From: an uncultured Candidatus Saccharibacteria bacterium
GTDB lineage: Bacteria > Patescibacteriota > Minisyncoccia > Phycocordibacterales > UBA9973
Assembly (NCBI GenBank): GCA_964603145.1
Contig: CAZRTW010000002.1
Span: 1 to 36,421, forward strand
Direction of reading: 5' to 3'
Length of the DNA stretch: 36,421 nucleotides
Shown: positions 17-15,845 of the stretch, piece after piece
Numbering within the stretch: the first letter of the stretch is position 1
Layout: each line of letters starts with the position of its first letter
Made by a program: the position numbers and the translations under genes
The notes under the pieces: model-generated
The model's input: the letters and a program-made list of their open reading frames with translations, nothing else
What the model was told of the DNA's origin: nothing
Database searches by the model: none

Positions 17-487
17 ATGAAACATGAACAAATACAAAATGATGTGCTGGGGATGCTCGGGGCTCTTGGGTATGAGGGCGCTGATGTAGCGGTTACGTAT
101 GATGACGGAGCAAATACGCTCTGGTTCTCAATCACCTCTCCACATACACGACTCCTTCTCACACGAGAAGCCGAAGCGCTTTCCGCACTCAACCATCTTG
201 CTGCACGCATAGTTGAGAAAACAAACACACCTGAATTGCGAGGGCCGCGTATTGTAGTGGACGCGAACAATCATGAGAAGAAAAAGATTGATACACTCCG
301 AACAACGGCGCATATGATGGCAGAGCGCGCTCGTTATTTTAAAGCTTCCGTTGATCTTGAGCCGATGTCAGCGCATAATCGTCGCATCGTCCACGAATTT
401 CTCTCTGAAGCGACTGATATAAAAACAGAATCAGCCGGTGAAGGTCCGGGGCGACACGTCGTCATTAAATATATTGGAGGACTGTAA
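17..487 (+). CDS. jag: Jag/KhpB-family RNA-binding protein (KH + R3H domains)
   Basis: 156-aa ORF. C-terminal R3H signature 'MSAHNRRIVHEFL...ESAGEGPGRHVVI'. Followed by a strong hairpin at 520-557. Confidence 0.8.
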   Translation: MKHEQIQNDVLGMLGALGYEGADVAVTYDDGANTLWFSITSPHTRLLLTREAEALSALNHLAARIVEKTNTPELRGPRIVVDANNHEKKKIDTLRTTAHMMAERARYFKASVDLEPMSAHNRRIVHEFLSEATDIKTESAGEGPGRHVVIKYIGGL

Positions 488-578: not shown

Positions 579-1892
579 TTATTGTTCCTTGATCTCCCCC
601 ATATTGAGCGCCCAGAGTGATTCAGTATTTTTGTCGATAAACACGAGATATGTTTCAGTTGAGTCAAGAGAGAGGCGGATTGCGTCAAGATTATTTCCTT
701 CCCCATTTGAAATTTCATACATAATTCCAGTTGAGGCATCGATTTTCCAAAAGCTATCATTAAAGTGAGTTACCCCTTGGTACCAACTATCAGGGTATTC
801 TCCTCGTGTAGCTGTTTTTGAAGCTGCACAATAAAACACAAGAGAGTTCTTTGCCCAGATACATTTTTCCGGCAGTGTTTGTAGCCCGATATTAATATCA
901 GAGCCATCAGAAAGGCGTTTGATATGGAGTGTAAGACCACCACCTCCAGAAACATTGTAGAGGAGGGATTTACCATCCGGGCTGATTTTTGTTGTGAGGC
1001 CGGTCACCCCACCTGCAATTTTCTGGAATACTCCGCTCTTTGGAACGAAATATGCTTGGCCAGGAAGAAGCGCTGTCGCCTTTGTTGTGAGGACCGGCAC
1101 ACCACTAGCCCAATCGAGGAGCCATTCAGAAAATGAACTGGAGAAGAGCTGTTTCTTTCCTGTGCCATCGGATTTCATACTGATGCCTGCTACGCCGTTG
1201 CCGGTTGGGAGAAGAAAGAGAATATTTTTACCGTCAGTAGAAAAAGTAATATCAACAATATTGTCTGGGAGGAATTCTCCTTTTACCGTCCCGTCAGATG
1301 ATGTTGTCGTTGGGGCGACACGGCGGCCTAGATAGGTTGCAACACCTTGGTTATCGTCTTTTACGTAACGGAAAATAATTGTTTCTCCCCCGTCGCCAAA
1401 ATACGCTTCAGCCGTTCGAGAAAGCACAGTGCCAGATGTCTTCTTGCTATTTTGCCCTGTGATCTCTACATCATAGAGATAGCCAGTGCCACGTTCGGCA
1501 AAACGAACAACCGGAATCTTTGAAGCGGGAATCGGACTACCACTTGGGTCGTTGATACTATAGTCAGGAGTGCCTTCTGGAGGAGGAGGGAGCACTGTGG
1601 CCCCTGCGACTACCTTGTTCGAGAGTTTGGTAAGACGCTTTGGGCCGGAAGATGTGCTCGGGGTTTCAGAATCCGGATTTTCCCCGCCGATTGTTCCAGT
1701 CGTAGGATTTTCCGTATTTGGAGTATTGTTGTTCCCGAATGGGAAGAGCGAACTCAAGATACTTTTTTGAGTGCCTGGCTCTCCATTCTGGCTATTTTTA
1801 TATGCTTGATATACCCAAACACCCAAAATAATAAGGGCGAGTGCAACAAGAATAATGATTTTTTTTCGAGACATAAAATACGCTTTCTCCAT
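579..1892 (-). CDS. Membrane-anchored protein with TolB-like (PD40-type) beta-propeller repeats; function unknown
   Basis: N-terminal TM 'IIILVALALIILGVWVY', a low-complexity linker, and recurring 'S(T/P)DGK..L' motifs (FSTDGKNILFLL, ISPDGKSLLYNV). An alternative start at ATG 1874 (MSRKKIII...) is plausible because TATAAT (1891-1896) overlaps the ATG at 1892. Confidence 0.7.
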   Translation of the reverse strand: MEKAYFMSRKKIIILVALALIILGVWVYQAYKNSQNGEPGTQKSILSSLFPFGNNNTPNTENPTTGTIGGENPDSETPSTSSGPKRLTKLSNKVVAGATVLPPPPEGTPDYSINDPSGSPIPASKIPVVRFAERGTGYLYDVEITGQNSKKTSGTVLSRTAEAYFGDGGETIIFRYVKDDNQGVATYLGRRVAPTTTSSDGTVKGEFLPDNIVDITFSTDGKNILFLLPTGNGVAGISMKSDGTGKKQLFSSSFSEWLLDWASGVPVLTTKATALLPGQAYFVPKSGVFQKIAGGVTGLTTKISPDGKSLLYNVSGGGGLTLHIKRLSDGSDINIGLQTLPEKCIWAKNSLVFYCAASKTATRGEYPDSWYQGVTHFNDSFWKIDASTGIMYEISNGEGNNLDAIRLSLDSTETYLVFIDKNTESLWALNMGEIKEQ

Positions 1893-1924: not shown

Positions 1925-3754
1925 TTATCTCGCCCAGCCGCAGTGCACATGATTCCAATGGTCTGCACGGGTGTTAAAGCCAGTGGCCTTACAAAGTCCG
2001 GTGATATTTTTCCCATTTGCATCCTTTGGGTAGGAATCGCATGGCCCAAGAAGTTCGGTCGCTCCTGCGAGCTTACATGCTCCTCCTATGGCTTTTACAC
2101 GGGGGAGATCTGTCGCTCGGGCGGATATATCGAATGCAACTCCGAGATAGTGTCGTGAATCAGCGCTGTGGTCTCCCCCTAGGATTTCGCTCACACTTAT
2201 TGGGCTACTTGAAGCATCTGAAGCAGCAATCAATCCTGAGAGCATCTCGGCACTAAGCGCAACTTGCTTTGACCCTACATCACTACGTGCGCTTGTCCAT
2301 GCAAGAAGATTTTTTGAAGTATCAATAATATTTTGTTGTGGGCTTGAACGACTGTCCCCCTTTTGGTCAGCTTGGAAAGTAATTTTTGAATTTTTAAGAA
2401 TATCTTCCGCAAGTTTCTGTGCGCTTCCTGTAACGATCGTAATGTTTGTTGGTGGCGTGACTGTTGTTGGGATGGTTCCATCGGTATCAGTTATTGGACC
2501 TTCTCCCCCTAAATCTACCCCCGTAATATTCACCGAAACATCAGTCAGGGCGGGGTTAATAGTATTAAGCAGAATATATGAACCAAGCGCGAGAAGAAGT
2601 CCAAAGAGCGCATTCATAATACGGCTCTTAGCACCCTCCTTCTCTCCAAGAGAGATAGTCGACATATACTCAATACCACCGATCACGATCATAAGTACTG
2701 CTAGTACTCCGATGATACCAATGACGAGCTTAATGATGCTTTCGATATAAATACCAACCCCCTCTTTCACATTGATCTTGCCAGTTGGATCGATATTCCC
2801 ATTCGCGTCTGGTATTGGGAGTGGAGCGAGCATGCAGTATGTGTCGGTACCTTCACTGATACAGTTGTATCCATTCGGAGCGGCATTTGTTGGTTTATCA
2901 ACGATCGGAGTGTAGTACTCAGGAATAGTAAATGACCCCAAATTCCACATGGATGGTTCAGTAAGCCAAGCTCCCTCTATTCGTTGACGATTCAGTCCGA
3001 TACAATATGTTCCGCTCGGGAGATTATTATGCAGCCCCTTTCCCCACCAGTCTTTAATAGAATAGAGAGAACGGTCTTCATTCAAAAATGAGTCAACGGC
3101 TCCGCCTTCAACCGTTGTTGTTCCATTGTATGGGTTATGCTCACTCCCCTTCCATGTATTATCTTGCAAGCAAGCTCCTTTGGAGTTTGTTTCAGTCCCA
3201 AGAACCATCTGATATTTTGCTTCAACATTTGGGTCAGTAATATCAATTTTGACCTCAACCCATGGGGTGCTGTCACTATTAACTGAGGCATACGCAAGTT
3301 TAAATTTTTCTTTATTAACTTTGTTTGAGGTGACTGTAATTTTTCGGGTATTTGCGTATGGGCTGAAATCAAAATCCTTGAATGTGTTTACTCCGAGTTT
3401 TGTTGTGCGCTCATTAGATTCGAACCATCCTGTGCAATAAGCTCCATCAGGGAGGTCCTTCCATGTGTATGTAAGTTCGTACGGTTTTACGCCGTTCGTT
3501 TTTGGTGTAGCAAATTCTCGAGAAACGTATTTAGAATTAAATGTGCAGTCATCATCTTTTTCTGTTCCGAGGGCGAACTTAAGCGTGCCATCGTATGTAT
3601 CGTAGTATTGCAGCTTTACAACGTATCCTCCGTTTCCATCCATGAGTGGAGCTGATGATTGTTCCACATTGTCTCGTGCGAAAGCACTACCCGCCGGAAC
3701 GAGCAGAAGAAGCAATACTGTAAAGCCAATTACCCATGATGTATTTTTTTTCAT
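1925..3754 (-). CDS. Secreted modular protein: duplicated Cys-containing N-domain + VirB2/TrbC-like pilin hairpin + C-terminal LAS/M15-type zinc peptidase
   Basis: Signal peptide 'VLLLLLVPAGSAFA'. Two hydrophobic helices (aa ~335-362 and ~379-398) are separated by the charged loop 'STISLGEKEGAKSR'. The C-terminus has 'SRHYLGVAFD' (SxHxxGxAxD) and 'NHVHCG' (HxH) zinc-ligand motifs. The start lies 4 nt after the stop of the upstream gene. Confidence 0.8.
   Translation of the reverse strand: MKKNTSWVIGFTVLLLLLVPAGSAFARDNVEQSSAPLMDGNGGYVVKLQYYDTYDGTLKFALGTEKDDDCTFNSKYVSREFATPKTNGVKPYELTYTWKDLPDGAYCTGWFESNERTTKLGVNTFKDFDFSPYANTRKITVTSNKVNKEKFKLAYASVNSDSTPWVEVKIDITDPNVEAKYQMVLGTETNSKGACLQDNTWKGSEHNPYNGTTTVEGGAVDSFLNEDRSLYSIKDWWGKGLHNNLPSGTYCIGLNRQRIEGAWLTEPSMWNLGSFTIPEYYTPIVDKPTNAAPNGYNCISEGTDTYCMLAPLPIPDANGNIDPTGKINVKEGVGIYIESIIKLVIGIIGVLAVLMIVIGGIEYMSTISLGEKEGAKSRIMNALFGLLLALGSYILLNTINPALTDVSVNITGVDLGGEGPITDTDGTIPTTVTPPTNITIVTGSAQKLAEDILKNSKITFQADQKGDSRSSPQQNIIDTSKNLLAWTSARSDVGSKQVALSAEMLSGLIAASDASSSPISVSEILGGDHSADSRHYLGVAFDISARATDLPRVKAIGGACKLAGATELLGPCDSYPKDANGKNITGLCKATGFNTRADHWNHVHCGWAR
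2504..2839 (-). repeat. Copy 1 of a perfect 336-bp direct repeat (pilin-hairpin cassette)
   Basis: A base-by-base comparison shows 336/336 identity with 5525-5860 (offset 3021). Identity ends abruptly at both edges. Confidence 0.97.
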
Positions 3755-3758
3755 GTGA

Positions 3759-4760
3759 TTATTCGAGCGTCAATTGAAGACTACTTTCTGCTTCTTGGAA
3801 CAATCTGCTTGGGTTCATAATGCTTACAAAGAGCGAAGCACTTCCTTTTGTGGTTGTGTCACGATGAAGAAAGAGAACACCAGGAGTTTTTGGAGTAGGG
3901 AGCGGGTCGCCGTTTAATTCCCAATCATATTTAAGAGCTGCTGATGTTGGGCTTTTTTTCGAGAAGAAGTATGGCAAAACAATAACAGTTGTGTCACTTC
4001 CTGAAACCGAGTGCACTCCGGTGAGAGCAGTATCAAAAAGTGGACCATAGAGCGGGCTACCAGCATACCAGAGAACCTTAGGCTGGTATCCGTTAACACG
4101 AGCATTTCCTTTAGTGCTTACGGTTCCATCAGGTGTTGAAACAGAAACGGAAGCACTCTTTGATTGCGCGAGGTATGTAAGAGATGTTTTAAAAGAGTCA
4201 ATGCCATATCCTGATGCATTTTCGTCAGGATTGAAATCTTCTTGCCACGAATAAATAAAATTCTGTACTGGCACGAAATTCCCCTTCGTATCCTTTACTT
4301 GAGGGATTGCAACAAATTTGATATCAGATTCCGAAGACGGCAATGCTTTGCCACGATACAGTGGTGGGACTATAGAATCCGTTGACTGCCAGAGAATATC
4401 AACAGTCATTGGAGTTATGACGATTGTTTTAGTGATAGGGACTGATCCAACAGGCACGATGTAAATACCAATAGTTGTCGGTGAGCCGAGCTCTTTTGTG
4501 GTAAAAGTGAAGTGATCTGCCCCTACGCCTACGGCAGATTTTTTGCCGTCCTGTCGCCATTCGATTGTTGAGGATTTTAGGTCAACAACGAAGCTTTTAA
4601 TAGTCAGAGTGACACTCTCGCCTGGGCCAGGATTTTCCGGGGATGCTGTGACGGATATATCGGAATTGAAGTTTCCACCTGTTGGTGTTTGGGCACGGGC
4701 GTGAAGAAGCGGCACAAAAAGCATAGTGAGAAGGAATGCGCCAATAATTCTACGAAACAT
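3759..4760 (-). CDS. Secreted beta-rich (Ig-like) protein, function unknown
   Basis: The internal ATG at 4760 gives the classical signal peptide 'MFRRIIGAFLLTMLFVPLLHARA'. TGCTATACT lies 6 nt upstream. The longer ORF to 4844 would run through hairpin 4776-4808 into the upstream gene. Confidence 0.7.
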   Translation of the reverse strand: MFRRIIGAFLLTMLFVPLLHARAQTPTGGNFNSDISVTASPENPGPGESVTLTIKSFVVDLKSSTIEWRQDGKKSAVGVGADHFTFTTKELGSPTTIGIYIVPVGSVPITKTIVITPMTVDILWQSTDSIVPPLYRGKALPSSESDIKFVAIPQVKDTKGNFVPVQNFIYSWQEDFNPDENASGYGIDSFKTSLTYLAQSKSASVSVSTPDGTVSTKGNARVNGYQPKVLWYAGSPLYGPLFDTALTGVHSVSGSDTTVIVLPYFFSKKSPTSAALKYDWELNGDPLPTPKTPGVLFLHRDTTTKGSASLFVSIMNPSRLFQEAESSLQLTLE

Positions 4761-4766
4761 GCATAT

Positions 4767-4775
4767 AGTATAGCA
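4767..4775 (-). promoter_or_regulatory. Extended -10 box TGCTATACT, 6 nt upstream of ATG 4760
   Basis: Read directly on the minus strand. It immediately follows terminator hairpin 4776-4808. No SD sequence lies between the box and the ATG. Confidence 0.5.
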
Positions 4776-4808
4776 ATAAGCCCTCCGCTTATGAAGCGGA
4801 GGGCTTAT
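4776..4808 (-). terminator. Hairpin terminator after CDS 4814-6325
   Basis: 13-bp stem (ataagccctccgc / gcggagggcttat) with a 7-nt loop. The U-tract is weak on the minus strand. Confidence 0.6.
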
Positions 4809-4813
4809 TTGTT

Positions 4814-6325
4814 TTACATCCAAGAGCTTGGATGGTCCATGCAATACATCATTTTTTTTGAAGCGTTTCGAGCCTCTTCTAAGTCTGTATTTTTCTTCGT
4901 ATGTTCAGGATTGTCATATGGGCATTCCCATGCTTTTACTGGCTTGTTCGCGGGGATGCAACTTGTTTCATTTTTGCAGTCTTTACTTGGTTTGCACCAT
5001 CCCGGCCCCGCTCCTTGTGCAGCTGCGACATTTCGCCAGTCTGTCCCGCATTGAGTGCTTTGAATGTATCGAATAAATTTCTCCTGAATACAAATAATTT
5101 TATCAATATTTTGGGGGTCAGAAAGCCATGATCCTGTTATTGTTCCAACAACACTACACTGTTTTGCATATGTCTGAGCAGTTGTGGGAAGTTGTTGGAA
5201 AATGCCATAAGCACGTCCATATTTTGTCATTTTACCCGGCTTAGTAATGTCGCAAGCTGATTCTTCTACCATATTTACTTTCATAAAGCGGGCAAGTTCA
5301 GGGTCGGACACAACTGCATCAATGCGAGCTGCATATTTTTTGCACATAGAGGTGATTCCTTCGCAATCCATTTTTCTGTCCCATGGCTTACAAATTTTTG
5401 CCATTTCATCACTTGTTTCCTGAGTGGTTGGCTTTGAAATTTTGACACCGGAATTTGGGTCTTTAACTATAAATTCAGTTTCGGGGGTCACTGTCACACT
5501 TTCTCCTTCTACTAATACCCCACTTCCCCCTAAATCTACCCCCGTAATATTCACCGAAACATCAGTCAGGGCGGGGTTAATAGTATTAAGCAGAATATAT
5601 GAACCAAGCGCGAGAAGAAGTCCAAAGAGCGCATTCATAATACGGCTCTTAGCACCCTCCTTCTCTCCAAGAGAGATAGTCGACATATACTCAATACCAC
5701 CGATCACGATCATAAGTACTGCTAGTACTCCGATGATACCAATGACGAGCTTAATGATGCTTTCGATATAAATACCAACCCCCTCTTTCACATTGATCTT
5801 GCCAGTTGGATCGATATTCCCATTCGCGTCTGGTATTGGGAGTGGAGCGAGCATGCAGTAAGCGCTCGTGTCTGTGCTCACACATCCATAACCGTTCGAG
5901 GCAGGTGGCTTGGTTGTGTCATCCGGATCTATCGTTGTTGTTGTGACAGGAGCTGTTTTTGTGGTAAATGTTCCGGTCAGTTTTGAGAAAAACGAATTAT
6001 CCTCAGGATAAATAGTATAACTATAGAGTGAACCAGTATTTAATCCTTTACATGCGACAATAAACTTTTCTGTGGTCGAAACTTGGCTACCTGGTTCCTT
6101 AGTTTCTTTTCCATCCTTGTCCACGCAAGTGATGAACATTTTTGTTTTAAAATCCTTTACCGAGCCAAGTTCAACCGCAAAAACTGCGATTGTGGTAGTG
6201 ATATCTTCCTGTACGATTTTTGCGCTTGTTGCTGCTTGTGCGAAGCCAGTGCCAAGCAAAAATACTCCAACGAAAAGGACTACACCTACCTTTGTCCAAA
6301 ATGTAGAACTGAAAATTTTTCTCAT
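4814..6325 (-). CDS. Secreted modular protein: N-domain + identical VirB2/TrbC-like pilin hairpin + C-terminal SLT-type lytic transglycosylase (VirB1-like)
   Basis: Signal peptide 'VVLFVGVFLLGTGFAQA'. aa 156-267 are identical to aa 306-417 of the 1925-3754 product. The C-domain has 'NMVEESACD...YGRAYGIFQQLPTTA' (catalytic E-S and a GLMQ-like motif of SLT domains). The start is 6 nt after the virB4 stop. Confidence 0.8.
   Translation of the reverse strand: MRKIFSSTFWTKVGVVLFVGVFLLGTGFAQAATSAKIVQEDITTTIAVFAVELGSVKDFKTKMFITCVDKDGKETKEPGSQVSTTEKFIVACKGLNTGSLYSYTIYPEDNSFFSKLTGTFTTKTAPVTTTTIDPDDTTKPPASNGYGCVSTDTSAYCMLAPLPIPDANGNIDPTGKINVKEGVGIYIESIIKLVIGIIGVLAVLMIVIGGIEYMSTISLGEKEGAKSRIMNALFGLLLALGSYILLNTINPALTDVSVNITGVDLGGSGVLVEGESVTVTPETEFIVKDPNSGVKISKPTTQETSDEMAKICKPWDRKMDCEGITSMCKKYAARIDAVVSDPELARFMKVNMVEESACDITKPGKMTKYGRAYGIFQQLPTTAQTYAKQCSVVGTITGSWLSDPQNIDKIICIQEKFIRYIQSTQCGTDWRNVAAAQGAGPGWCKPSKDCKNETSCIPANKPVKAWECPYDNPEHTKKNTDLEEARNASKKMMYCMDHPSSWM
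5525..5860 (-). repeat. Copy 2 of a perfect 336-bp direct repeat (pilin-hairpin cassette)
   Basis: Identical to 2504-2839, in the same orientation and the same reading frame (112 codons). Confidence 0.97.
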
Positions 6326-6331
6326 ACGATA

Positions 6332-8176
6332 CTACTCTACAGCTTTTGACAGCTCATTGCGCGACTTTTGAAGGGCAAGAATCTGTGATGGATCGCTCGT
6401 GATGAGCTGGTCTTCTGTGTATGAAGCAATAATCTTAATTGCCACGTGTTTGAGACCTGCAAAGAAGATTCCCTCACCTTTACTACACTCAAGCAGAAGG
6501 TATTTTTCTTCGTCTGTCAGATTGAATGTTTTTTGGAGCGCCTCTACGGTTGATGGAGATTGTTTAAGAAGGAGTTGCAGACTTGAGTTTGTGATGATTG
6601 GCACGCCGTATGGGCTCTTCATAAAGTCGCCCACATCTTGGGTGATAGTTGCAAGACCCAAGAAATATTTTCGCCCACGTTTTGCAATTGAAAAGAGGAA
6701 CGATGCGGTATCGTCTGATTTCATCATCCACCATGCCTCGTCCACCACCAAGAGTCGTTTTTTTATGTTTTTGCGCACTTCATTCCAGATGAAATGCGTC
6801 ACGATGTTCATCGCCGCTGGTTTCAAATCGTCTTCCATGTCACGCACAGAGAAGACTACAAACTTTTTATTAATATCCACATTTGATGGCTGGTTGATGA
6901 ACCCTGCCCATGAGCCGTGCGTATATTTAGAGAGACGCGCAACCAACGAATCTGTTCCTTCCATACCGGAGAGGACCATTTCAAAGTCAGAGAGAAGCGG
7001 TGGTTCGATTTGGGCAAAATCAGAATCAGGAGTGATGTCTTTGATCGCATAGTTTTCCATAATCGCGCGATCGATGAGTGAATCTTCTTCTGGAGTGAGG
7101 CCGCCGAGCATAATACGGAAAAGACCAACAAGGTTAATCACGTTTCCACGGAGTACATCAGTATTGGTCTCCCCTTCTCCTGGGAGCGGGAGGTCAAATG
7201 GATTGATGTGGCTACCTGAGTTGAGGGAAATATTAAAGTAACGACCGCCAAGCGCTTCGGCCAAGCGTTCGTATTCACGTTCTGGGTCGATCACAATCAC
7301 TTCCGTTTCGAACATGAGTGATCGGATGATCTCAAGTTTTGTCGCGTATGATTTACCGGCACCGGAGGTCGCGAAAATAATTGAGTTGTAGTTATCGAGC
7401 GAGAATCGATCGAAAATGATAAGTGAAGAGTTCTGTCTATTCACGCCATACAGAATTCCCTTGTCTGAAGTAAGATCGAATGAAACAAACGGGAAGAAGC
7501 TCGAGAGCGGTTCAGAATTGAGTTTCTGATAAATCCGGAGATGGTCGTCCTCAAGCGGAAGAATGCTTTTAAAGCCATCATCCTGTTGGAAGAGGGCCGG
7601 CTTGAAGTAAATGAGTTTAGACTCAAGGATTGATTTGATTTCGTTCTCAATCTTGTAGAGTTCCGTGTCATTGTCTGCGTAAATAGTGAGATATAGTCCT
7701 ACATCAAACATTTTTTCTTGGGCTTGGGTAAGGCGGTCGCGCAAATCCTCAAGGTTCTGGTTTGCCACATCAAGTTCCGGGTCGCGCACCAGACCTTTTG
7801 ATTCGCGAGTCATAATCTGACTTTGTACTTCTGCCACTTTTTTCTGGAAATTTCGAAGAACGATTGCTGTTTCAACTGGGTGGATCACAATCGAAATATC
7901 AAATACTTTGTCGAGGTTAATGATTGGGGTGAGCCAGTTGTCGTTGATGGTTGAAGGATATGAAATAACGAAGTAGGTTCGGGCAATTTTGTCGCCGAGG
8001 TTGATGGACTTTGGTTCAATCTTAAGCGCAGATGGCGCAATAATGTCTTTGAGTTCGAGTGTGGCTGCCTCGTAGATCTGGTCTGGCAGAACAGGCATGG
8101 CATTTGACTGAATGCGCGTGGAGCTCTGCGCATTTTTGCTCGTATTCGTATTTCCAAAAAGTCCAAAAAATGCCAT
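6332..8176 (-). CDS. virB4: VirB4/TrbE/CagE-family type IV secretion ATPase (middle + ATPase domains)
   Basis: Walker A 'FATSGAGKSYATK', Walker B 'RLLVVDEAWWMM'. The N-terminal part 'IAPSALKIEPKSINLGDKIARTYFVISYP' is typical of Gram-positive VirB4 homologues. Confidence 0.85.
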   Translation of the reverse strand: MAFFGLFGNTNTSKNAQSSTRIQSNAMPVLPDQIYEAATLELKDIIAPSALKIEPKSINLGDKIARTYFVISYPSTINDNWLTPIINLDKVFDISIVIHPVETAIVLRNFQKKVAEVQSQIMTRESKGLVRDPELDVANQNLEDLRDRLTQAQEKMFDVGLYLTIYADNDTELYKIENEIKSILESKLIYFKPALFQQDDGFKSILPLEDDHLRIYQKLNSEPLSSFFPFVSFDLTSDKGILYGVNRQNSSLIIFDRFSLDNYNSIIFATSGAGKSYATKLEIIRSLMFETEVIVIDPEREYERLAEALGGRYFNISLNSGSHINPFDLPLPGEGETNTDVLRGNVINLVGLFRIMLGGLTPEEDSLIDRAIMENYAIKDITPDSDFAQIEPPLLSDFEMVLSGMEGTDSLVARLSKYTHGSWAGFINQPSNVDINKKFVVFSVRDMEDDLKPAAMNIVTHFIWNEVRKNIKKRLLVVDEAWWMMKSDDTASFLFSIAKRGRKYFLGLATITQDVGDFMKSPYGVPIITNSSLQLLLKQSPSTVEALQKTFNLTDEEKYLLLECSKGEGIFFAGLKHVAIKIIASYTEDQLITSDPSQILALQKSRNELSKAVE

Positions 8177-8181
8177 AAAAA

Positions 8182-8829
8182 TTATTGCACCCCTTCCAGC
8201 TTAATAGCCGGCTGGATATCTCCCGGGTTAAATGTCTTATAGAAAAGTTCAATCACTTCTTCTGTTTGGAGACGCTCACAGCGAGCGCCACAGCTTGCAA
8301 GCCCACCTGAAATAACTGATACACGTTCATCAAGCTGAGTACGGCGTTCTTCGAAATTTGCATCATCGACTTTTTTCTTATTTTTCTCCCCTCCTCCGCC
8401 AAAAATCTTTGAGAAAAATCCCTGCTTTGAATTAAGCGCTGCCTCTTCGTAGGGAATAACAACATAGAAATACTTTCGCATAATGGAAACCTGTTCAGTA
8501 AATTCACGTACGAAGTTAATGTATCCAAGAGTCTGGAGTTTTAGGAGGGGTTCGCGCTGTTCAGCTACTTTGCTCTCAAGCATGATGAGGTATGGACGAA
8601 TATCAAGGCGTCGAGATTGTACAACAATCTGCACCGGAAAATCGAGAGAGTTTAAAAAGCCTTGGAATTGGCGGATAACGGCGATTTGTTCCTCGGCAGA
8701 TTTGAGGGCAAGGTTTACGGAAGAAACGGCCAAAATAGCGCGAAGTGCGCCGTCTTTGAGCACCACAGTTCCCTCTCGTACTTCTTTGATTGGTACGAAT
8801 TCTTGAGTAGCGGTTGCAGAAATTGCCAC
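8182..8829 (-). CDS. VirB4 N-terminal-domain-like protein encoded as a separate ORF
   Basis: GTG start. 'FVPIKEVREGTVVLKDGALRAILAVSSVNLALKSAEEQ...' resembles the N-terminal ~200 aa of full-length Gram-positive VirB4 proteins. The stop is 5 nt before the virB4 ATG, in another frame. 215 + 614 aa is about the length of an unsplit VirB4. Confidence 0.6.
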   Translation of the reverse strand: MAISATATQEFVPIKEVREGTVVLKDGALRAILAVSSVNLALKSAEEQIAVIRQFQGFLNSLDFPVQIVVQSRRLDIRPYLIMLESKVAEQREPLLKLQTLGYINFVREFTEQVSIMRKYFYVVIPYEEAALNSKQGFFSKIFGGGGEKNKKKVDDANFEERRTQLDERVSVISGGLASCGARCERLQTEEVIELFYKTFNPGDIQPAIKLEGVQ

Positions 8830-8860: not shown

Positions 8861-8896
8861 AAGAATAAAACCCCATAACTATGGGGTTTTATTCTT
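8861..8896 (-). terminator. Hairpin terminator after the PrgI-like gene
   Basis: 15-bp stem (aagaataaaacccca / tggggttttattctt) with a 6-nt loop. It overlaps the stop codon at 8895-8897. Confidence 0.75.
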
Positions 8897-9311
8897 AGCG
8901 TCGGTTTGTTTTATCAAGTACGTCGAGGCCCCAAGCAATATCATGAAGTTTTGATTCAGTAATACGTGGGATAAAAACAGGATTTTTTGCTTTTTCTTCG
9001 GCGTCTTTCTCCTCTTTTGATTTTCGCTTCTTTTTTTCTTGCTTCCAGACATAGAGTTTATCGCTAAATGCATACGTAAACGCAGATTCAACGATATTTA
9101 TGAATGGTTTGTCGTTCACTTTGATAAAGGCGAGAGTGAAGGCGAATACGGCAACTGGTATAGCAACAATAATCCCAAAGAAGAGCGGTAGAAGTTTCAG
9201 TGCAAGGAAACAAAGACCCCCTCCTCCAGCGAGATACACGAATTGGCGGAATGTTAGTTGCCCAAAAATCTTATCTTCGACATCAATAAATTGTGGCACT
9301 GAGAATCTCAT
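8895..9311 (-). CDS. PrgI/VirB3-like small membrane protein
   Basis: 'MRFSVPQFIDVEDKIFGQLTFRQFVYL' followed by two TM helices, which is the pattern of PrgI/TcpE-type VirB3 analogues. It has its own promoter-like box and terminator. Confidence 0.65.
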   Translation of the reverse strand: MRFSVPQFIDVEDKIFGQLTFRQFVYLAGGGGLCFLALKLLPLFFGIIVAIPVAVFAFTLAFIKVNDKPFINIVESAFTYAFSDKLYVWKQEKKKRKSKEEKDAEEKAKNPVFIPRITESKLHDIAWGLDVLDKTNRR

Positions 9312-9326: not shown

Positions 9327-9355
9327 AAAAGTCGGCGCGTATGCGCCGACTTTTT
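9326..9355 (-). terminator. Intrinsic terminator after CDS 9354-10229
   Basis: GC stem gtcggcgc/gcgccgac with a 4-nt loop, flanked by A5/T5. It abuts the stop codon. Confidence 0.85.
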
Positions 9356-10229
9356 ATGCTATAGGTTCTCGATATGGGTCTACCGACGGTTTTGTGGGTG
9401 GAGTAGCCGGAGTTGGTGGTGTTGCCGGTTTTGCGATCGTGTAGTCAGTTGTTTTTGTTGGCGCCATAATAGGAGTGGTCGCTTTTAGTTTATCTGCCAC
9501 AAGATTTGTCGGAGCAATTTTAGTTGGATTTTCAATTCCCTGCAAAATGTCAGTACGGCTTCCAAGTGGTGCATCTTTTACAGGAAGAGGAGTCTCGCTG
9601 ATAACTACTCCAGTCTTTTCAAGCATGCTTTTCTCTTGGGTGGAGAGTACGGGTGCTGGTTTTGGAGCGACTGGCGCCGGTGGAACTGGTGTGGGAGTAG
9701 TAACTGAAGGTGTAACAGGTTTTGGAGCAATGCCGGCAATGTTTGGAGTGGTTGGAGCAGAAGCGACAGGTTCAGTTTCTTCTCTGTCAGGCAAAAAGTC
9801 TGCTGGGTCGCGCTTGGCAGAATAGACTCTCTCAAGTGAGGCACGGATTGGAGTAAAAATTCTCTCATTGATCATAGGAATAAGCGCGTCCATCTCGGCA
9901 TCAGTTTTCTTGAGGTCCTTTTGAATTTCATCACGGTACTCGTTTGGCGGTGTCATGCCAAGAATTACCATAGAGGTATCAATCTCAAGTGTTGAAAGTT
10001 CTTCGAAGGTGAGTTTATTAGCTTTCGCTATTTCAAAAAGCGATTTCTGATAGGTATCGCTCACCATAAGTTTTTTGAGGTCATCAGGAAGAAGCTCAAA
10101 ACGAGTTTTGATTTCCTTCTGAACACCAAGGTACTCATCCATCAAGTACTTTTCAGTATCCCCGGTAGCCCCTTCCCCGACAGCTCCCTTTAAGGAGGTT
10201 ACATTTATTTTTTTTGCGTCGTCTGCCAT
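9354..10229 (-). CDS. Pro/Thr-rich hypothetical protein without signal peptide or TM segment
   Basis: 291-aa ORF. A helical N-half is followed by low-complexity 'PKPVTPSVTTPTPVPPAPVAPKPAP' and 'KPATPPTPATPPTKP'. TGATATAAT lies 9 nt upstream, and terminator 9326-9355 abuts the stop. Confidence 0.65.
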   Translation of the reverse strand: MADDAKKINVTSLKGAVGEGATGDTEKYLMDEYLGVQKEIKTRFELLPDDLKKLMVSDTYQKSLFEIAKANKLTFEELSTLEIDTSMVILGMTPPNEYRDEIQKDLKKTDAEMDALIPMINERIFTPIRASLERVYSAKRDPADFLPDREETEPVASAPTTPNIAGIAPKPVTPSVTTPTPVPPAPVAPKPAPVLSTQEKSMLEKTGVVISETPLPVKDAPLGSRTDILQGIENPTKIAPTNLVADKLKATTPIMAPTKTTDYTIAKPATPPTPATPPTKPSVDPYREPIA

Positions 10230-10238
10230 ATCTTTTTT

Positions 10239-10247
10239 ATTATATCA
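10239..10247 (-). promoter_or_regulatory. Extended -10 box TGATATAAT, 9 nt upstream of ATG 10229
   Basis: Perfect TATAAT with a TGn extension in the 43-nt gap after CDS 10273-13068. Confidence 0.5.
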
Positions 10248-10272
10248 TTACTATCTCAAAGCCAATCATTTG

Positions 10273-13068
10273 TTAGTGCCCATGCCCGTCCCCTCCCGCA
10301 TGTCCATGATCATCATGCCCGTGGTCGTCGTGTCCATGATCAGAGCCACTTGCCTTTATTCCCGATGCATCAACCTTGATAACAGGGTTGAGTGGGGCTC
10401 CTTGTTTTCCTCGGTGGTCGTCAGCACCGGCGTTTGCTGCGGCTGCATCAATGTTACGCGGGGTCCAACTGTTGATCATGTCCTTAGTATTTGCAGAACT
10501 TTGTCTGACAATATCAGTTACACCATATTTGAAGATATTTCCAAAGTTTTCAATTGCGGAAATTATGCCTTTGTAATTCTTAAATTCTTCAAGATTTAGT
10601 TTAAAGGAGCCCATAACATCCTTGGTTTTTTCTTTGCGTTCACCAAGATCGAGGTGTCCGGTACGAATTATACTTCCGGAAGAATCAAGAAGGTCTCCAT
10701 GGAGTGCGTAATTTTGCTGTGCGAGCTGCATATGAGTGAGTGATTTAGCACGATCGTTCTCATTTCGTTTCTGCATGCTCTGAAGCTGAGCAATAGTTTT
10801 TCCATGTGATCCAGTAAGATCGGCGCGAGAGACATCGTGATCAGTAACAAGTTCGTCGTCAGCCTTCTTAGCTTTATGTTCAACGTGTTCTTTAAAGTAG
10901 CTTGCCGTTGTCCTGCCCATGTCGATATCCTGTTTATCAATGGTGTGCATGACCGTTTTACCATCTTTATCTCTAATAGCTTGCCCGTCTCGGCCAAGTA
11001 CTGCGATTTGTTTACCAAGAGCAAGCTCCGGATGATCTTTATCTCCGAGCTTAATTTTTGAGACTCCTTCTGTAACATTCAATAATGCCTTTTCAAGCGC
11101 TTCTTTTTCCTTGTTTGCTGCATACCATTCACCAGACTTAGTATCCATACTATTCTTTTTATCTGCCTGTGAAAGAGTAGAGCTAAGATTTTTTACCTTA
11201 TCTCGAGCCGCTCTAAGTTCAATATTGATATCCTTTTTGGCTGTATCTCGTTCATCAAGCGTATCATCATAGCCATTTTGCTGGTCATGGTTATGGCCAA
11301 GCTTTTTCTTCATTGCATCGAGTTTTGCGGCTTTAGCATTCATTTCACCTTCAAATCCTCCGGCCGCACGCTGCATTGAAAGGGCACCAAAACTGCCCAT
11401 GTTCATACCAGTAAATTGGCGGGTTGTTGCTCCCATGCCTGTTTGACGCCAGTCGTATGAACGAGCCGCACGTTTTTGCGCGCTCTCGACTTTTTTAAAC
11501 ATATCTTTCTGCATGGTCTGAAAGCGGGAGTCTTTTTTCATTTCTGCTTCAGACATTCCTTCCATATCTGTAGCTGAGAGTTTAAATTTTTTCGCGAACA
11601 TTTCTTTGGTTGCATTTGTTACACGGCCAGATGCCATGTCGAGGTTTGCTTCATTCTTAGCAAAGTTCATTGCGCGACCTCCAAGGATTCGTCGGCCCGC
11701 AAGGGAAGCGACACCAGAAACCCCGCCAAGTGCAAGCCCCCCAGCAAGTCCAATTCCTTTTTGTGCAAGGTTTGCTACTACTTGTCCGAATTCTCCCGCA
11801 GAAGATTTTACGTACTTCGTCGCTTTGAGGATCATCACAACCAGCATCGCAAAGAAGATGAGCATGATGAACAATGTTGCGTATGAACTATGTGTTGCTG
11901 CGAAGGAGTCTCTTACCATCTGACTCTTTGCCATGATGGAAATAAGAAGCAGGAAGAAGAAATAAATCGGAGCGCCAAAGGCAACGGCAAGAAGATCCGC
12001 CCACCAATGATCCCAGCCAACACCATGAATGTGTTTTGTTTTTGGAATGATGTAACTCACAAAGGCGATTGGTGCGAAGACAATGGCAATCCAGAGACTA
12101 ACCATGCGTCCGAGGCAGGCCATGGCGGCAATAAAGAGTGACCAAGCCATGACGAAGTAGACGATTCCCACAAGAATGAGGAGCCCCATAACCGTGGAAG
12201 GAGGGATATCACCGATTATTCCGTTTGGTGAGAGTCCCTGCCAGAATTTCTTACTTTGGAATTTTTGCGGTTCGAATGCTTGGACCAATTGCGTACTGAT
12301 AGATTTTGGCGGAGTCGCTCCGTTTCCATATACACCACCTACTGATCCGGCATTTTTTTCTCCGTCTACTACGACAACCGATGAGGCCCCGATTTGATTA
12401 TAGAAAACTAAGGCCAGCGTATTTGATATATCAATCACCACCTCGGTGATGAACATGCTGAAGTTTATGATAAGGGCGATCAGAACAATCGATGCCAGCA
12501 TCTTTTTGGGGTTCGCGTGGGCAATTTCAATATCGAGCACGAAGGAGAGTGCTGTAAAGAGGAGAATCAAAATAAGAAAAATATTGGCGAAGTCGCGTGT
12601 TATACGCCAGCCTTCTGCAATAAATTCCGCCCCGCTATAGTAGGTGCTCTGCAGCGTAATAGCAGCGAGTGTGTCAAAGAACGAGGCAGAGAGATACATG
12701 AATTTCGCACCAATCAGGTATGGGAAGAAGTAGAAGAGATATTCAAGACAGCCGATGAGCGTACCGCTAAAGAGGAGGCCACATTGGTCCTCGATTGCCT
12801 GCTCAATACTATATTTATCACTTGTATTTTTTGCCTTAGTCGCCTCTTCTTCAGCTTGTGATACTGCAATCGATGAAAGTATTTGGACGGAAGGGTAAAT
12901 CAACTGCGCCGTTGCTCTTTTAGGGGCAAGCATGGGAGAAAAAACTCCCAGTAAAACTGAAGTTAAAAGTATCGGAATAACAATACGCTTCATAATGCGT
13001 ATGCGTCCTCCTATTTTATTTTTTCTTCGGCTAAAGATTTGCATTCTGTCCTGGTTTGCACCGCACAT
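10273..13068 (-). CDS. Polytopic membrane protein, VirB6/TrbL-like (TcpH/ConG-type) with a long hydrophilic C-terminal domain and His-rich tail
   Basis: Signal-like N-terminus and multiple TM helices across aa ~100-460. A ~470-aa charged, coiled-coil-like tail ends in 'GSDHGHDDHGHDDHGHAGGDGHGH'. The start is ambiguous: ATG 13068 has TATACT 10 nt upstream, and ATG 12993 (MKRIVIPILL...) has AGGAGG 13 nt upstream. Confidence 0.7.
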   Translation of the reverse strand: MCGANQDRMQIFSRRKNKIGGRIRIMKRIVIPILLTSVLLGVFSPMLAPKRATAQLIYPSVQILSSIAVSQAEEEATKAKNTSDKYSIEQAIEDQCGLLFSGTLIGCLEYLFYFFPYLIGAKFMYLSASFFDTLAAITLQSTYYSGAEFIAEGWRITRDFANIFLILILLFTALSFVLDIEIAHANPKKMLASIVLIALIINFSMFITEVVIDISNTLALVFYNQIGASSVVVVDGEKNAGSVGGVYGNGATPPKSISTQLVQAFEPQKFQSKKFWQGLSPNGIIGDIPPSTVMGLLILVGIVYFVMAWSLFIAAMACLGRMVSLWIAIVFAPIAFVSYIIPKTKHIHGVGWDHWWADLLAVAFGAPIYFFFLLLISIMAKSQMVRDSFAATHSSYATLFIMLIFFAMLVVMILKATKYVKSSAGEFGQVVANLAQKGIGLAGGLALGGVSGVASLAGRRILGGRAMNFAKNEANLDMASGRVTNATKEMFAKKFKLSATDMEGMSEAEMKKDSRFQTMQKDMFKKVESAQKRAARSYDWRQTGMGATTRQFTGMNMGSFGALSMQRAAGGFEGEMNAKAAKLDAMKKKLGHNHDQQNGYDDTLDERDTAKKDINIELRAARDKVKNLSSTLSQADKKNSMDTKSGEWYAANKEKEALEKALLNVTEGVSKIKLGDKDHPELALGKQIAVLGRDGQAIRDKDGKTVMHTIDKQDIDMGRTTASYFKEHVEHKAKKADDELVTDHDVSRADLTGSHGKTIAQLQSMQKRNENDRAKSLTHMQLAQQNYALHGDLLDSSGSIIRTGHLDLGERKEKTKDVMGSFKLNLEEFKNYKGIISAIENFGNIFKYGVTDIVRQSSANTKDMINSWTPRNIDAAAANAGADDHRGKQGAPLNPVIKVDASGIKASGSDHGHDDHGHDDHGHAGGDGHGH

Positions 13069-13076
13069 AACTCTTA

Positions 13077-15845
13077 CTAGTATATATTGATAATCGCCTC
13101 AAGTCCGGCAAGAGCGTATTTCAACGGTTGGTCATTAATCGTTACAACATCATCATTCTTAACGACATTCTTCTCGGTTTGTTTCCCAAACTTTGCCTCG
13201 AAGTGAGGAACTTGGTCAGCCCCCTGCCCCATCGCATAGTGTACGTCAGGGAGCATTGAGTATCCGACATCGGTAAAGGTATCTTCAAATGCAATAAATT
13301 CTGCACGGCCATCATATGCCCCGTATCCCGCAGATGGCGCCATTACTGGGATTTCTTCCAATATTGTTCTTGGGTAAAACATGCGTGCCTTTGGAGCACT
13401 GTATGCCGCGCCGTTTGTGTCAGTTACACATGTTTCAATGTATCCACCCTTGCCTTCGTAGTCAGAGAGTTCATTTTTAAGTGCTACAAGTGCGTCTTCC
13501 TGCTTGTTAACATCGTCAAGGCTGTGAATTTTTGGAGCGATAAGATCAAAGGTACTGCTGATGCGACGAAGCTCAACTTGGTATGGAGTCAAAATCGCAA
13601 TACTTTTTCCTTGTGTTTCAAGGAAGTCTTGCTGATACCAATACCACTTATCGTGAGGAATAACTGGCGCTGTTGGAGTTGGTGGCGTAATTACAGTACC
13701 CGTTCCTGTGGTAAGGGTGGCTATACCAAGCTGTTGCGGAGCGATTGTTGTGTTAGTGAAGAGCGTTGTGGTCGTTGTTTGTGTGTGGTCAATATATCCT
13801 GCAAATGTCGGGAGTTTGTTGATGCGGGCAACAAGGCTATTTAGTTGCTCGACAGTTGCCTTACTGCTTGTGATCAAAATCTTGTTGTCGTGAAGCGCTT
13901 TTTTGTAAGCACTAACATTTCGGAATTTAGTCTCATTGATTGTGTATTCAAGCGGTAGATTTAATGTGATGTCCGGATTATATTCAGGCAAATATGTCTG
14001 ATCAACAATATCAGCGTAACGATTAAAGAGAGTGTTGAAAATATTTACGATAGAGTTGTGCCCGTTTACTTTGAGGTTGTCCTCGACAGTAACATGTGTT
14101 GTCGGCGGAGGATTCTGTTGCTTATTCGGGAAGTAGTAATCATCACTTGGCTGCGCTGGCGTGTAGCTCAAGAAATGTGAAACAACACCAGCAAAGAATT
14201 TCTCATTGCGCTTATCGCTCGTTGCGTTTTTTAGGTTTAGGAAGTTTATTGGATCGAGAATTTTATTCACAATGAGTGATCCCTGGCTGATTGCCGCGTC
14301 AGCATTCGCAGGAATATTATCCGAACTTGAGGTGAATTCTCTCAAGTTTTCTACCGCATCTTGTCTCCACCCTGGATGTGGTCCTGGTACACAGAAGTCG
14401 AGTTTGTATACGGCTGTAATAAGGCGTGCTGCTTGCTGATTTTGTTCTTCCAGCGCTTGCTGGTACCCCCGTGGCTTCGGGTCAAGAGCATTTTTGGGAG
14501 TGTAATCCTCATTTGGAATGATAAGCGGGATATCCTTGAAGACATTGAATGTTCTGTTTGAATTGAGCCATGAACCATTTGTATTAGGGTCTACTCCCCC
14601 AACAACATCGATTGAAGGATTTACGAATGAGCCATTGTTCGTGTATTGCGATGGGGCAGAACTTGCATCTGTTGTTGCAAGTGCCGCGAGACCTCGTTGC
14701 ATAAGTTGGTTGGTGAGTGCATTGAAAATTGCTGTGAGATCTGCGGTAAGATCCTGGCCAAGACCAAGCTGATCGATTGGAGAACCAAGAACTTTGTTAA
14801 GACTTGCTGCGACCACGCTTCCTGGAGTTTGTGTCGCGTACTGTGTACAGGTGTTATTGAAGACAACTTCGCGAAGACGCGCAGCTTCTTTTTCGCTTGA
14901 TGGATCATCCGGCAACGCGCGCATTTTCGCCCGTGCCTCTGCTGCAGTTTTGTCGGAGCTGTCATTATAGGTACTTGGTGCTACACAAATTTTTGTATCA
15001 AGAAATCCGGCGTTACGCATAAGTTGATCGCGGATGTCATACGCAGGATTGTAGTAGGTTCCCTGCTTTCGTGCAGCTATTTCATTCTGTGCTCCCATCT
15101 GGAAGCCGATCGGATTGTTTCCTGTTTGGAATTGATGATCAAAAGCTACCCAACCCCCTTCAAGAAAACTACGCTCGAAATCTGCTACTGTTGGTGGGCG
15201 GGAGTATGTGTTGTACTGCTGAGCAAGTACGCGATCAAGACTGTACTGTGCTCGCTGTTCGAATGTACGGCTCATGTTGCTTACAATTCCTTGCGCGACA
15301 TTGCGACCGAACGGGTAATTTTTTGCATCAAAGGCAATATTGCCGACAAATTTTTCTGTCGCTTGATCACCAATTGCTTTTAGGAAAGATTTTTCATCCT
15401 TTGGGAAAAATGAACTACCGCCTTTAAATCCGCGGTTGATCCAGTTTACTGTGGCAACTGTGAGTTGGCGTAAAATAACTTGAGCTGCAGCTTTTTCAAC
15501 TGCCTTAGTACAAGTGATATCGTTTGCTGTTGTCGCAGAAGCATTCGCAATTTTTTCAGCTGTTTCTGAATCTTGCACGACGTTGATCGGGATTGAGTTT
15601 GATCCTGATGCCCCTGTCCCCATTGTGCTTCCGCTACTACTGTTACCGCCAAAGATGCCGCTGATTCCTGAACTAATTTGATCTTTATGGCAGGAAATTT
15701 CTGCTGCTGCAATTGCACCAATAGTATCTACAGCAATTGTGGAGAGTGATGTTGCGTATGCCATCGTCACGCTTTGAAACGTGATGACAAGCACGAGAAA
15801 AACCGCAAAAAAACGTTTTAGCGCGCCATATGCAGTCTGTTTCAT
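13077..15845 (-). CDS. Large (922 aa) secreted or N-terminally anchored protein, no recognisable domain
   Basis: N-terminal hydrophobic segment 'FFAVFLVLVITFQSVTMAYA'. Thr/Pro-rich linker 'TTTTTLFTNTTIAPQQLGIATLTTGTGTVITPPTPTAP'. TATACT lies 8 nt upstream of the ATG. Confidence 0.75.
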   Translation of the reverse strand: MKQTAYGALKRFFAVFLVLVITFQSVTMAYATSLSTIAVDTIGAIAAAEISCHKDQISSGISGIFGGNSSSGSTMGTGASGSNSIPINVVQDSETAEKIANASATTANDITCTKAVEKAAAQVILRQLTVATVNWINRGFKGGSSFFPKDEKSFLKAIGDQATEKFVGNIAFDAKNYPFGRNVAQGIVSNMSRTFEQRAQYSLDRVLAQQYNTYSRPPTVADFERSFLEGGWVAFDHQFQTGNNPIGFQMGAQNEIAARKQGTYYNPAYDIRDQLMRNAGFLDTKICVAPSTYNDSSDKTAAEARAKMRALPDDPSSEKEAARLREVVFNNTCTQYATQTPGSVVAASLNKVLGSPIDQLGLGQDLTADLTAIFNALTNQLMQRGLAALATTDASSAPSQYTNNGSFVNPSIDVVGGVDPNTNGSWLNSNRTFNVFKDIPLIIPNEDYTPKNALDPKPRGYQQALEEQNQQAARLITAVYKLDFCVPGPHPGWRQDAVENLREFTSSSDNIPANADAAISQGSLIVNKILDPINFLNLKNATSDKRNEKFFAGVVSHFLSYTPAQPSDDYYFPNKQQNPPPTTHVTVEDNLKVNGHNSIVNIFNTLFNRYADIVDQTYLPEYNPDITLNLPLEYTINETKFRNVSAYKKALHDNKILITSSKATVEQLNSLVARINKLPTFAGYIDHTQTTTTTLFTNTTIAPQQLGIATLTTGTGTVITPPTPTAPVIPHDKWYWYQQDFLETQGKSIAILTPYQVELRRISSTFDLIAPKIHSLDDVNKQEDALVALKNELSDYEGKGGYIETCVTDTNGAAYSAPKARMFYPRTILEEIPVMAPSAGYGAYDGRAEFIAFEDTFTDVGYSMLPDVHYAMGQGADQVPHFEAKFGKQTEKNVVKNDDVVTINDQPLKYALAGLEAIINIY
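13079..13084 (-). promoter_or_regulatory. -10-like TATACT, 10 nt upstream of ATG 13068
   Basis: It overlaps the last codons and stop of CDS 13077-15845. It has no TGn, and the start codon of the downstream gene is ambiguous. Confidence 0.3.

Follow-up and report, generated by a model that had tools for sequence, protein, structure and literature searches.

Two genes in a 36,421-nucleotide (nt) stretch of DNA from an uncultured Patescibacteriota bacterium (assembly GCA_964603145.1, contig CAZRTW010000002.1, positions 1 to 36,421; hereafter the window) encode proteins of 503 and 609 amino acids (aa) that differ over most of their length and share a DNA-identical cassette of 336 nt. Both are predicted to consist of a signal peptide, a variable surface domain, a VirB2-like hairpin encoded by the cassette and a peptidoglycan hydrolase domain, and we refer to them as fusion proteins with an N-domain, a hairpin module and a C-domain. 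Comparison of the window with related genomes leads us to propose module-restricted concerted evolution of the cassette by intragenomic gene conversion between the two fusion-gene copies, a reading to which we give a probability of roughly 0.8.

The two cassette copies (Table 1) match at 336 of 336 positions and form an in-frame direct repeat, just as the earlier note on this DNA had described, with both copies on the minus strand. The exact match is not extendable by even one base at either end, in agreement with the sharp edges reported there, and the repeat region contains zero N's. In ungapped comparison, identity on the low-coordinate side, which corresponds to the C-terminal side of the proteins, drops immediately to the 20-34% of random sequence; on the high-coordinate, N-terminal side it stays near 50% over the first ~60 nt, which encode a conserved lead-in of the form 'NGYxC...', and is random beyond. 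The proteins are thus correctly characterized as loosely similar upstream of the block and unrelated downstream of it. A repeat finder returned the pair as the sole repeat of at least 40 nt in the 36.4-kb window, and the chance expectation of an exact repeat of 336 nt in 36 kb is essentially zero. The copies are spaced by 3021 nt, and the interval between them holds the C-domain of the 503-aa protein, the gene at 3759-4760 (referred to as 'mid') and the N-domain of the 609-aa protein; the geometry is therefore right for the ~3 kb deletion substrate that had been suggested, and a deletion from repeat to repeat would remove 'mid'.

To place the repeat in an evolutionary context we used a comparison set of 104 related loci (L001-L104), including a few duplicate or overlapping records. 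The gene order transmembrane protein, PrgI, TraC-like protein, VirB4, 'mid', fusion gene, PD40-like protein and Jag is kept in almost all of them, and most relatives carry one fusion gene. Within the clade of the window, whose VirB4 proteins are 86-98% identical in aa sequence, four genomes carry two fusion genes with modules that do not differ in DNA: the window, L001 (ENA BUCK21), L002 (NCBI GCA_037143195.1) and L003 (ENA GROS21), where the tracts of 100% identity measure 336, 393, 379 and 1198 nt, respectively. The clade also includes a fifth case with two copies, L096/L097, in which the modules are not identical. The window tract begins at the start of the module, and that of L003 spans the entire N-domain and the hairpin. 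L001, L002 and L003 come from different projects and assemblies, and two of the two-copy structures are present in assemblies from more than a single sample. Comparison of the module across genomes gives identities of 69-81% in nt and 73-89% in aa sequence, with a proportion of synonymous differences (pS) of 0.57-0.73. The comparison proposed in the earlier note, namely whether the cassette is alike within genomes and diverged between them, therefore gives a clear outcome, with 100% identity within the four two-copy genomes against 69-81% between them. A profile scan of metagenome contigs with the cassette alignment gave, among the matches listed, only distant relatives (at most 51% identity), none of them with notable DNA-level repeats.

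The central comparison is that of L001 and L002. These genomes have in common the derived order VirB4-fus1-mid-fus2-PD40, the C-domains of their first and second fusion proteins are 80% and 82% identical in aa sequence, respectively, and the synonymous divergence (dS) of their virB4 genes is 1.36. Given this shared gene order and the orthologous hydrolase domains, the duplication is older than the L001/L002 split, and conversion would therefore have taken place in each lineage afterwards. Between the two genomes the cassette differs by 19% in nt sequence, with a dS of 1.09, and within each of them there are 0 differences; at 19% divergence, 393 nt would be free of differences with a probability of ~1e-36. 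With zero differences, the pairwise dS accumulated since the most recent conversion is at most 0.01-0.036. A duplication that precedes a lineage split is thus found for L001/L002, and for the lineage of the window the only indication is the arrangement shared with L100, the closest relative of the 609-aa gene, which apparently has the arrangement of the window and whose contig starts a few codons past the expected end of the first cassette. The N-domains of the L002 paralogs are mostly 55-78% identical in nt sequence per 20-codon window, with a BLAST match of 78% over 1022 nt that includes the 379-nt exact tract. Upstream of that tract they are far more alike than those of the window or L001, which indicates repeated events, in which an older, longer conversion would lie beneath a younger, shorter one.

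As expected for concerted evolution, the identical stretches are discrete tracts with abrupt ends and variable length, including the nested tract of L002 and a 99-nt island in L096 that is considered below. Under this reading one cassette copy would be recurrently overwritten by the other via non-reciprocal homologous recombination, and we infer gene conversion of the RecA type as the mechanism. Since the hydrolase domains that follow have unrelated folds, homology would end there and so fix the 3' edge of the tract, and the 5' edge would differ among genomes, from the module start in the window to a position that includes the whole N-domain in L003. Selection may favour sameness of the hairpins, for instance if one structure of a type IV secretion system (T4SS) or its pilus serves both enzymes for docking or co-assembly.

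Regarding the product of the cassette, a match to the PF18895 T4SS_pilin family lies within the block in both proteins (24.8 and 24.0 bits, just below the gathering score of 26.6), and a precomputed PF18895 assignment is present in many homologs. The AlphaFold2 (AF2) model of the 503-aa protein places helices at residues 184-214 and 219-249 as a two-helix hairpin closed by a short, charged loop, 'EYMSTISLGEKEGAKSR', with a predicted local distance difference test (pLDDT) score of only 63-79 across the hairpin helices. The module is encoded near virB4, in a T4SS cluster with PrgI and TraC-like genes upstream. We found no stand-alone pilin open reading frame (ORF) in the window; the module is internal to the 503- and 609-aa proteins and is thus not a small stand-alone pre-pilin. 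Taken together, family match and model point to a putative VirB2-like, T4SS_pilin-type two-helix membrane hairpin with a score just below the cut-off, and the label 'pilin-like' used in the earlier note broadly holds (E=2e-5, under the gathering score). The hairpin topology implies that both flanking domains would sit outside the cell.

The AF2 model of the whole 503-aa protein (mean pLDDT 70) comprises a signal helix, a beta-sandwich at residues 35-121 that matches fibronectin-III domains in a fold search, a disordered linker and a confident C-domain. Fibronectin-III (Fn3) matches of the N-domain dominated the fold search with the full model. Modelled alone, the C-domain reached a pLDDT of 93.6, and its top folds in the PDB were MltE, Slt70, Pseudomonas aeruginosa Slt, Cj0843 and g-type (goose) lysozyme, with template modelling (TM) scores of 0.5-0.6 and E ~3e-3. 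Its orthologs share an invariant 'MVEES...YG(I/L)FQQ' motif, including E87-E88-(S/T). Pfam gave no SLT (PF01464) match for the 503-aa protein of the window and a weak one (E=0.056) for one ortholog, and a PDB sequence search with the C-domain found no match, either as a single sequence or as a profile. At the fold level only, through a lysozyme-like fold with a Glu motif, the domain is predicted to be lytic-transglycosylase-like, which to that extent supports the 'SLT domain' of the earlier note.

For the C-domain of the 609-aa protein, nine orthologs show invariant H118-x6-D125 and H185-x-H187, the zinc-ligand pattern of LAS/M15 enzymes. The ortholog profile matches the Hedgehog N-domain, which has the LAS fold (E=8e-4), and Peptidase_M15_3 is matched by 4 of the 9 orthologs (8.5e-4); the window protein alone had no peptidase match in Pfam, and the single-sequence PDB search with its C-domain was likewise empty. 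These similarities are weak, and suggest a LAS/M15-like zinc peptidase.

The surroundings of the hairpin are highly modular. Despite a VirB4 identity of 98%, the N-domains of L001 (10001-10830 and 12799-13520) and L002 (10001-10950 and 12929-13850) are 27-32% identical, which would mean extremely fast turnover or replacement of these presumed host-contact domains. The C-domains of close relatives include two SLT-like types, LAS/M15, VanY-like, NlpC/CHAP-like (assigned by eye) and YkuD domains. In L006 (6642-9536) and proteins P0091-P0094, of ~950-964 aa, the hairpin is followed by a LAS/M15-like peptidase and an SLT-like domain in tandem; the two activities found on separate genes in the window are thus fused as one 964-aa protein in L006. 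The junction of hairpin and SLT-like domain is attested in L094 and L003, and that of hairpin and LAS domain in L008, L009, L013 and L100; as single-copy relatives share the N-domain-hairpin-hydrolase architecture, both junctions of the window are independently attested. In L095 (3022-8627), sister to L001/L002, 'mid' is absent and a single 794-aa fusion protein with a VanY-like C-domain is encoded directly after virB4. Residues 392-433 of this protein match only the first fusion protein of L001, and its C-domain belongs to another M15 subtype, with no detectable relation to that of the second; the idea that two cassettes once recombined by crossover in L095 is therefore only partly supported by the sequence comparison. 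As a separate observation, the 1187-nt contig of L033 carries an exact 336-nt tandem duplication with a period of 330 (positions 123-788) in the N-domain of a fusion gene, and the coincidence of its length with that of the window repeat is apparently accidental.

This modularity could also be explained if the hairpin were a fixed recombination 'joint' through which the N-terminal host-contact domains and C-terminal hydrolases of the T4SS of the candidate phyla radiation (CPR) are re-dealt, which we regard as unlikely. If it were so, deletion, chimera or amplification variants, like L095 without 'mid', would segregate within populations, and selection would require the same hairpin on every hydrolase subunit owing to co-assembly into one pilus-like or channel structure. 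That the cassette serves as a joint dedicated to shuffling or phase variation, with frequent crossovers that swap N- and C-domains or delete and amplify the 3-kb loop and so vary the T4SS surface, appears quite unlikely to us. The constancy of the module among close relatives while both sides are exchanged would fit such a system, and L095, with one fusion gene after virB4, has the form of the expected cassette-by-cassette deletion product; however, the C-domain of L095, with no detectable relation to that of the second L001 fusion protein, leaves a simple deletion scenario incomplete, the 36-kb window yielded neither a recombinase, an invertase or a reverse transcriptase nor silent copies that could act as donors, and ordinary homologous recombination over evolutionary time suffices. 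We also rejected a diversity-generating retroelement (DGR), as the scanned ORFs of the window contain no reverse transcriptase domain and the repeats are identical and both internal to coding regions; silent cassettes of the pilE/pilS type, since there are two copies only in 36 kb, each in a complete ORF with a signal peptide; and the insertion of a mobile element, for which the defining features fail.

An independent, very recent duplication in each genome, with identity reflecting the youth of the duplicates, is in our view decidedly improbable. It would account for the single-copy state of most relatives and for the 1198-nt tract of L003, which, covering N-domain and hairpin, resembles a fresh partial duplication. 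The two-copy genomes also have two gene orders, with 'mid' between the fusion genes (fus1-mid-fus2) in the window, L001 and L002 and ahead of both (mid-fus1-fus2) in L003 and L096, so that the two-copy state probably arose or was rearranged more than once. On the other hand, the common order and orthologous C-domains of L001 and L002, at a dS >1, make both genes older than the split, the tract flanks are diverged or unalignable in the window, L001 and L002, where an in-frame replacement of the module alone amounts to gene conversion, and in L002 an older tract lies outside the younger one.

The possibility that the copies were collapsed, mis-joined or smoothed to identity from really different sequences during assembly, which we judge very improbable, has to be considered because all the sequences compared, that of the window included, derive from metagenome assemblies. 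Some related contigs do break at or close to the cassette, a sign that it is difficult for assemblers: the end of L022 falls within it, the starts of L012 and L004 lie just ahead of it and L100 begins a few codons past its expected end, although L100, having no overlapping bases with the second copy, is weak evidence for a repeat-induced break. In addition, L022 (1876-2418) and L004 (1-543), which belong to one metagenome-assembled genome (MAG), are 93% identical over 543 nt at the boundary of N-domain and cassette, and could represent two paralogs or two strains. Nevertheless, four independent genome assemblies contain the in-frame structure with two copies, and the cassette sequence is particular to each of them; both ORFs of the window are intact across both junctions. 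The hairpin-SLT-like and hairpin-LAS junctions, as well as the junction of hairpin and N-domain of the 609-aa type, are each seen in one-copy contigs, and the path repeat-loop-repeat is the sole one that places the near-universal 'mid' gene in the chromosome. Moreover, smoothing could mask a few percent of difference, not the 19-31% divergence between species.

Homogenisation is not universal among lineages with two copies. In L096 and L097, which represent two strains, the paralogous hairpins are 83% identical in nt and 98% in aa sequence (2 of 93 residues differ), with a pS of 0.54. An exact island of 99 nt, very unlikely by chance at the ~26% divergence that surrounds it, looks like a short conversion tract; in both strains (L096, 6118-9818) the C-domain of the second fusion protein looks NlpC/CHAP-like and not M15, judging by eye from its Cys/His motif. 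In the distant lineage of L032 and L071 there are 2-3 differences in 66 hairpin codons at a pS of ~0.5, with 71-87% nt identity in L032, and the modules of L083, at 56% aa and 60% nt identity, are plainly diverged. By comparison, orthologous hairpins at a comparable pS (L001 vs L002) differ at ~11 of 98 residues. These small numbers, with their weak statistics, are suggestive of paralogous hairpins that may be held alike in protein even without recent conversion. Purifying selection alone, acting on the protein or on an embedded DNA or RNA element without recombination, could draw on this strong constraint on the hairpin protein between paralogs despite DNA divergence (L096/L097 and L032) but is extremely unlikely as the explanation, since synonymous sites diverge freely both between species and between the near-identical paralogs of L096/L097, and zero synonymous differences in 336-1198 nt are therefore not attributable to selection alone.

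Several of these observations count against concerted evolution by gene conversion. The other two-copy lineages just described are not homogenised, only four homogenised genomes were found, all in one clade, and the N-domains of L001 and L002 are too variable to show orthology of the 5' halves of the genes. The identity may partly stem from bubble-merging by the assembler of copies that are ~95% identical or more, and the loop between the repeats may be present more than once. The proposal of gene conversion or concerted evolution made in the earlier note is thus supported by the four genomes and by the L001/L002 comparison, and does not extend to every lineage that carries two copies.

Table 1. 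Features of the T4SS locus at the low-coordinate end of the window.
Feature	Coordinates	Strand	Description
Jag/R3H gene	17-487	+	Pfam R3H; oriC-proximal side
437-aa protein	579-1892	-	weak PD40 repeat match; always after the last fusion gene
609-aa fusion gene	1925-3754	-	signal peptide, variable N-domain (2840-3754), cassette, predicted LAS/M15-like zinc-peptidase C-domain (1925-2503)
Cassette copy 2	2504-2839	-	residues 306-417 of the 609-aa protein, same DNA as copy 1; PF18895 E=2.2e-5, 24.8 bits
'mid' gene	3759-4760	-	~333 aa from ATG; between the repeats; present in almost all related loci, absent only in L095
503-aa fusion gene	4814-6325	-	signal helix, Fn3-like N-domain (5861-6325), cassette, disordered linker, predicted lytic-transglycosylase-like C-domain (4814-5524)
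Cassette copy 1	5525-5860	-	residues 156-267 of the 503-aa protein (YCMLAPLP...NITGVDLGG); PF18895 T4SS_pilin E=4.2e-5, 24.0 bits
VirB4-like T4SS ATPase	6332-8176	-	directly upstream of the first fusion gene; P-loop_TraG 6e-24, AAA_10, DUF87
TraC-like	8182-8829	-	PF26593 on orthologs
PrgI/VirB3-like	8895-9311	-	Pfam PrgI 1.3e-10
Further syntenic genes	9354-15845	-	Pro/Thr-rich 291-aa protein, polytopic 931-aa membrane protein with His-rich tail, 922-aa surface protein; synteny in all related loci

The gene content summarized in Table 1 identifies the locus as the chromosomal, oriC-proximal T4SS of Patescibacteria described by Quinonero-Coronel et al. (2025, PMC12102498), here in a Paceibacteria/Nomurabacteria-like member of the group. 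In relatives, Jag/R3H is followed by yidC, yidD, rnpA, rpmH, dnaA and dnaN, and the related loci retrieved belong to MAGs of Ca. Nomurabacteria/Paceibacterota. PF16403 Bact_surface_Ig-like is present on orthologs of the 922-aa protein. The 931-aa polytopic membrane protein (ORF 10273-13068, minus strand) ends in a His/Asp-rich C-terminal tail, GHDDHGHDDHGHAGGDGHGH, encoded at 10273-10340 and suggestive of metal binding. More cell-wall enzymes are encoded on the same contig, namely a protein with a YkuD L,D-transpeptidase domain (25948-27096, minus strand) and a LysM plus M23 peptidase (27327-28592, plus strand). In the related T4SS locus L103, a gene with Pfam matches to bAvd / 23S_rRNA_IVP, a family of DGR accessory proteins, lies between the Pro-rich gene and prgI (3629-3991).

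Concerted evolution by gene conversion is known for tufA/tufB and for rRNA operons. The pattern described here resembles such cases in that paralogs within a genome are closer than orthologs between genomes, tracts have sharp ends, events recur after an older duplication and the products belong to one complex or pathway. It departs from them in being limited to a module of ~100 codons, with the other domains non-homologous on the C-side or hypervariable on the N-side, and in concerning one CPR clade, with some lineages that escaped, and not hundreds of millions of years. Long-lasting gene conversion has been described in 26 cases of bacterial and archaeal paralogs and is considered rare (Wang and Chen, 2018, PMC6053082), and domain-limited gene conversion also exists, with the duplicated mtrA as an example (PMC4632066). 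The process of gene conversion between bacterial paralogs is thus known, and what is new is its place, a module in the T4SS hydrolase fusions of CPR bacteria.

The VirB2 arrays of Patescibacteria (PMC12102498; Wang et al., 2023, PMC10633639; PMC12857230) occur in the same type of locus, with virB4, prgI/virB3, a polytopic membrane protein and PF18895 modules beside dnaA/oriC, and the T4SS with its pilin array is essential in Southlakia epibionticum (PMC10633639; reviewed in PMC12857230). The published arrays consist of small pilins that are highly variable, with a mean aa identity of 25% and a maximum of 54% according to PMC12102498, whereas the modules described here lie inside hydrolase-domain proteins of 503-609 aa and are 100% identical in DNA. 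Searches of that paper by term found no mention of hydrolase fusion or gene conversion. The fusion proteins are also similar to the VirB1-type hydrolases of Gram-positive T4SSs, such as PrgK of pCF10, TraG of pIP501 and TcpG, which are membrane-anchored, multidomain, endowed with lytic transglycosylase and peptidase activities and encoded beside virB4 (cited in PMC12102498); the homologues of peptidase and lysozyme that directly follow virB4 in Saccharibacteria are reported to be essential. Unlike in those hydrolases, a VirB2-like hairpin midway along the protein, behind a secreted surface domain, would serve as the anchor here, and in the window the two activities are on two paralogs.

In Neisseria, the pilE/pilS system uses gene conversion from silent donor cassettes without promoters to vary its pilin antigenically. 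Our case shares with it, and with the VirB2 paralog families of Anaplasma and Bartonella (the latter mentioned in PMC12102498), a probable non-reciprocal recombination among pilin-related sequences. In those systems diversity is generated, whereas here the outcome would be homogenisation of a module in two full-length genes that are presumed to be expressed.

The finding has practical consequences for the study of these loci. Statistics of whole-protein identity on pilin 'arrays' overlook identity at the level of the module, and exact repeats of 0.3-1.2 kb are predictable points of breaks and mis-joins in metagenome assemblies of CPR bacteria. As for the biology, the sole genetically tractable species of Patescibacteria requires its T4SS for epibiotic growth, with essentiality shown only in Saccharibacteria, and the presence of VirB2-like pilins in a monoderm system is puzzling. 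In one clade of Paceibacteria, all pilin-type modules detected within the locus regions that the analysis covered (36 kb for the window) sit in fusions of a secreted domain and a hydrolase. In genomes with two such genes the hairpins are kept identical, usually, we propose, by gene conversion, and elsewhere the protein stays near-identical while the DNA diverges. Both wall-cutting enzymes therefore probably need the same hairpin, as would be the case if they physically co-assemble into a common T4SS or pilus structure. Co-assembly of both hydrolases is a concrete, testable hypothesis on how this machine is built.

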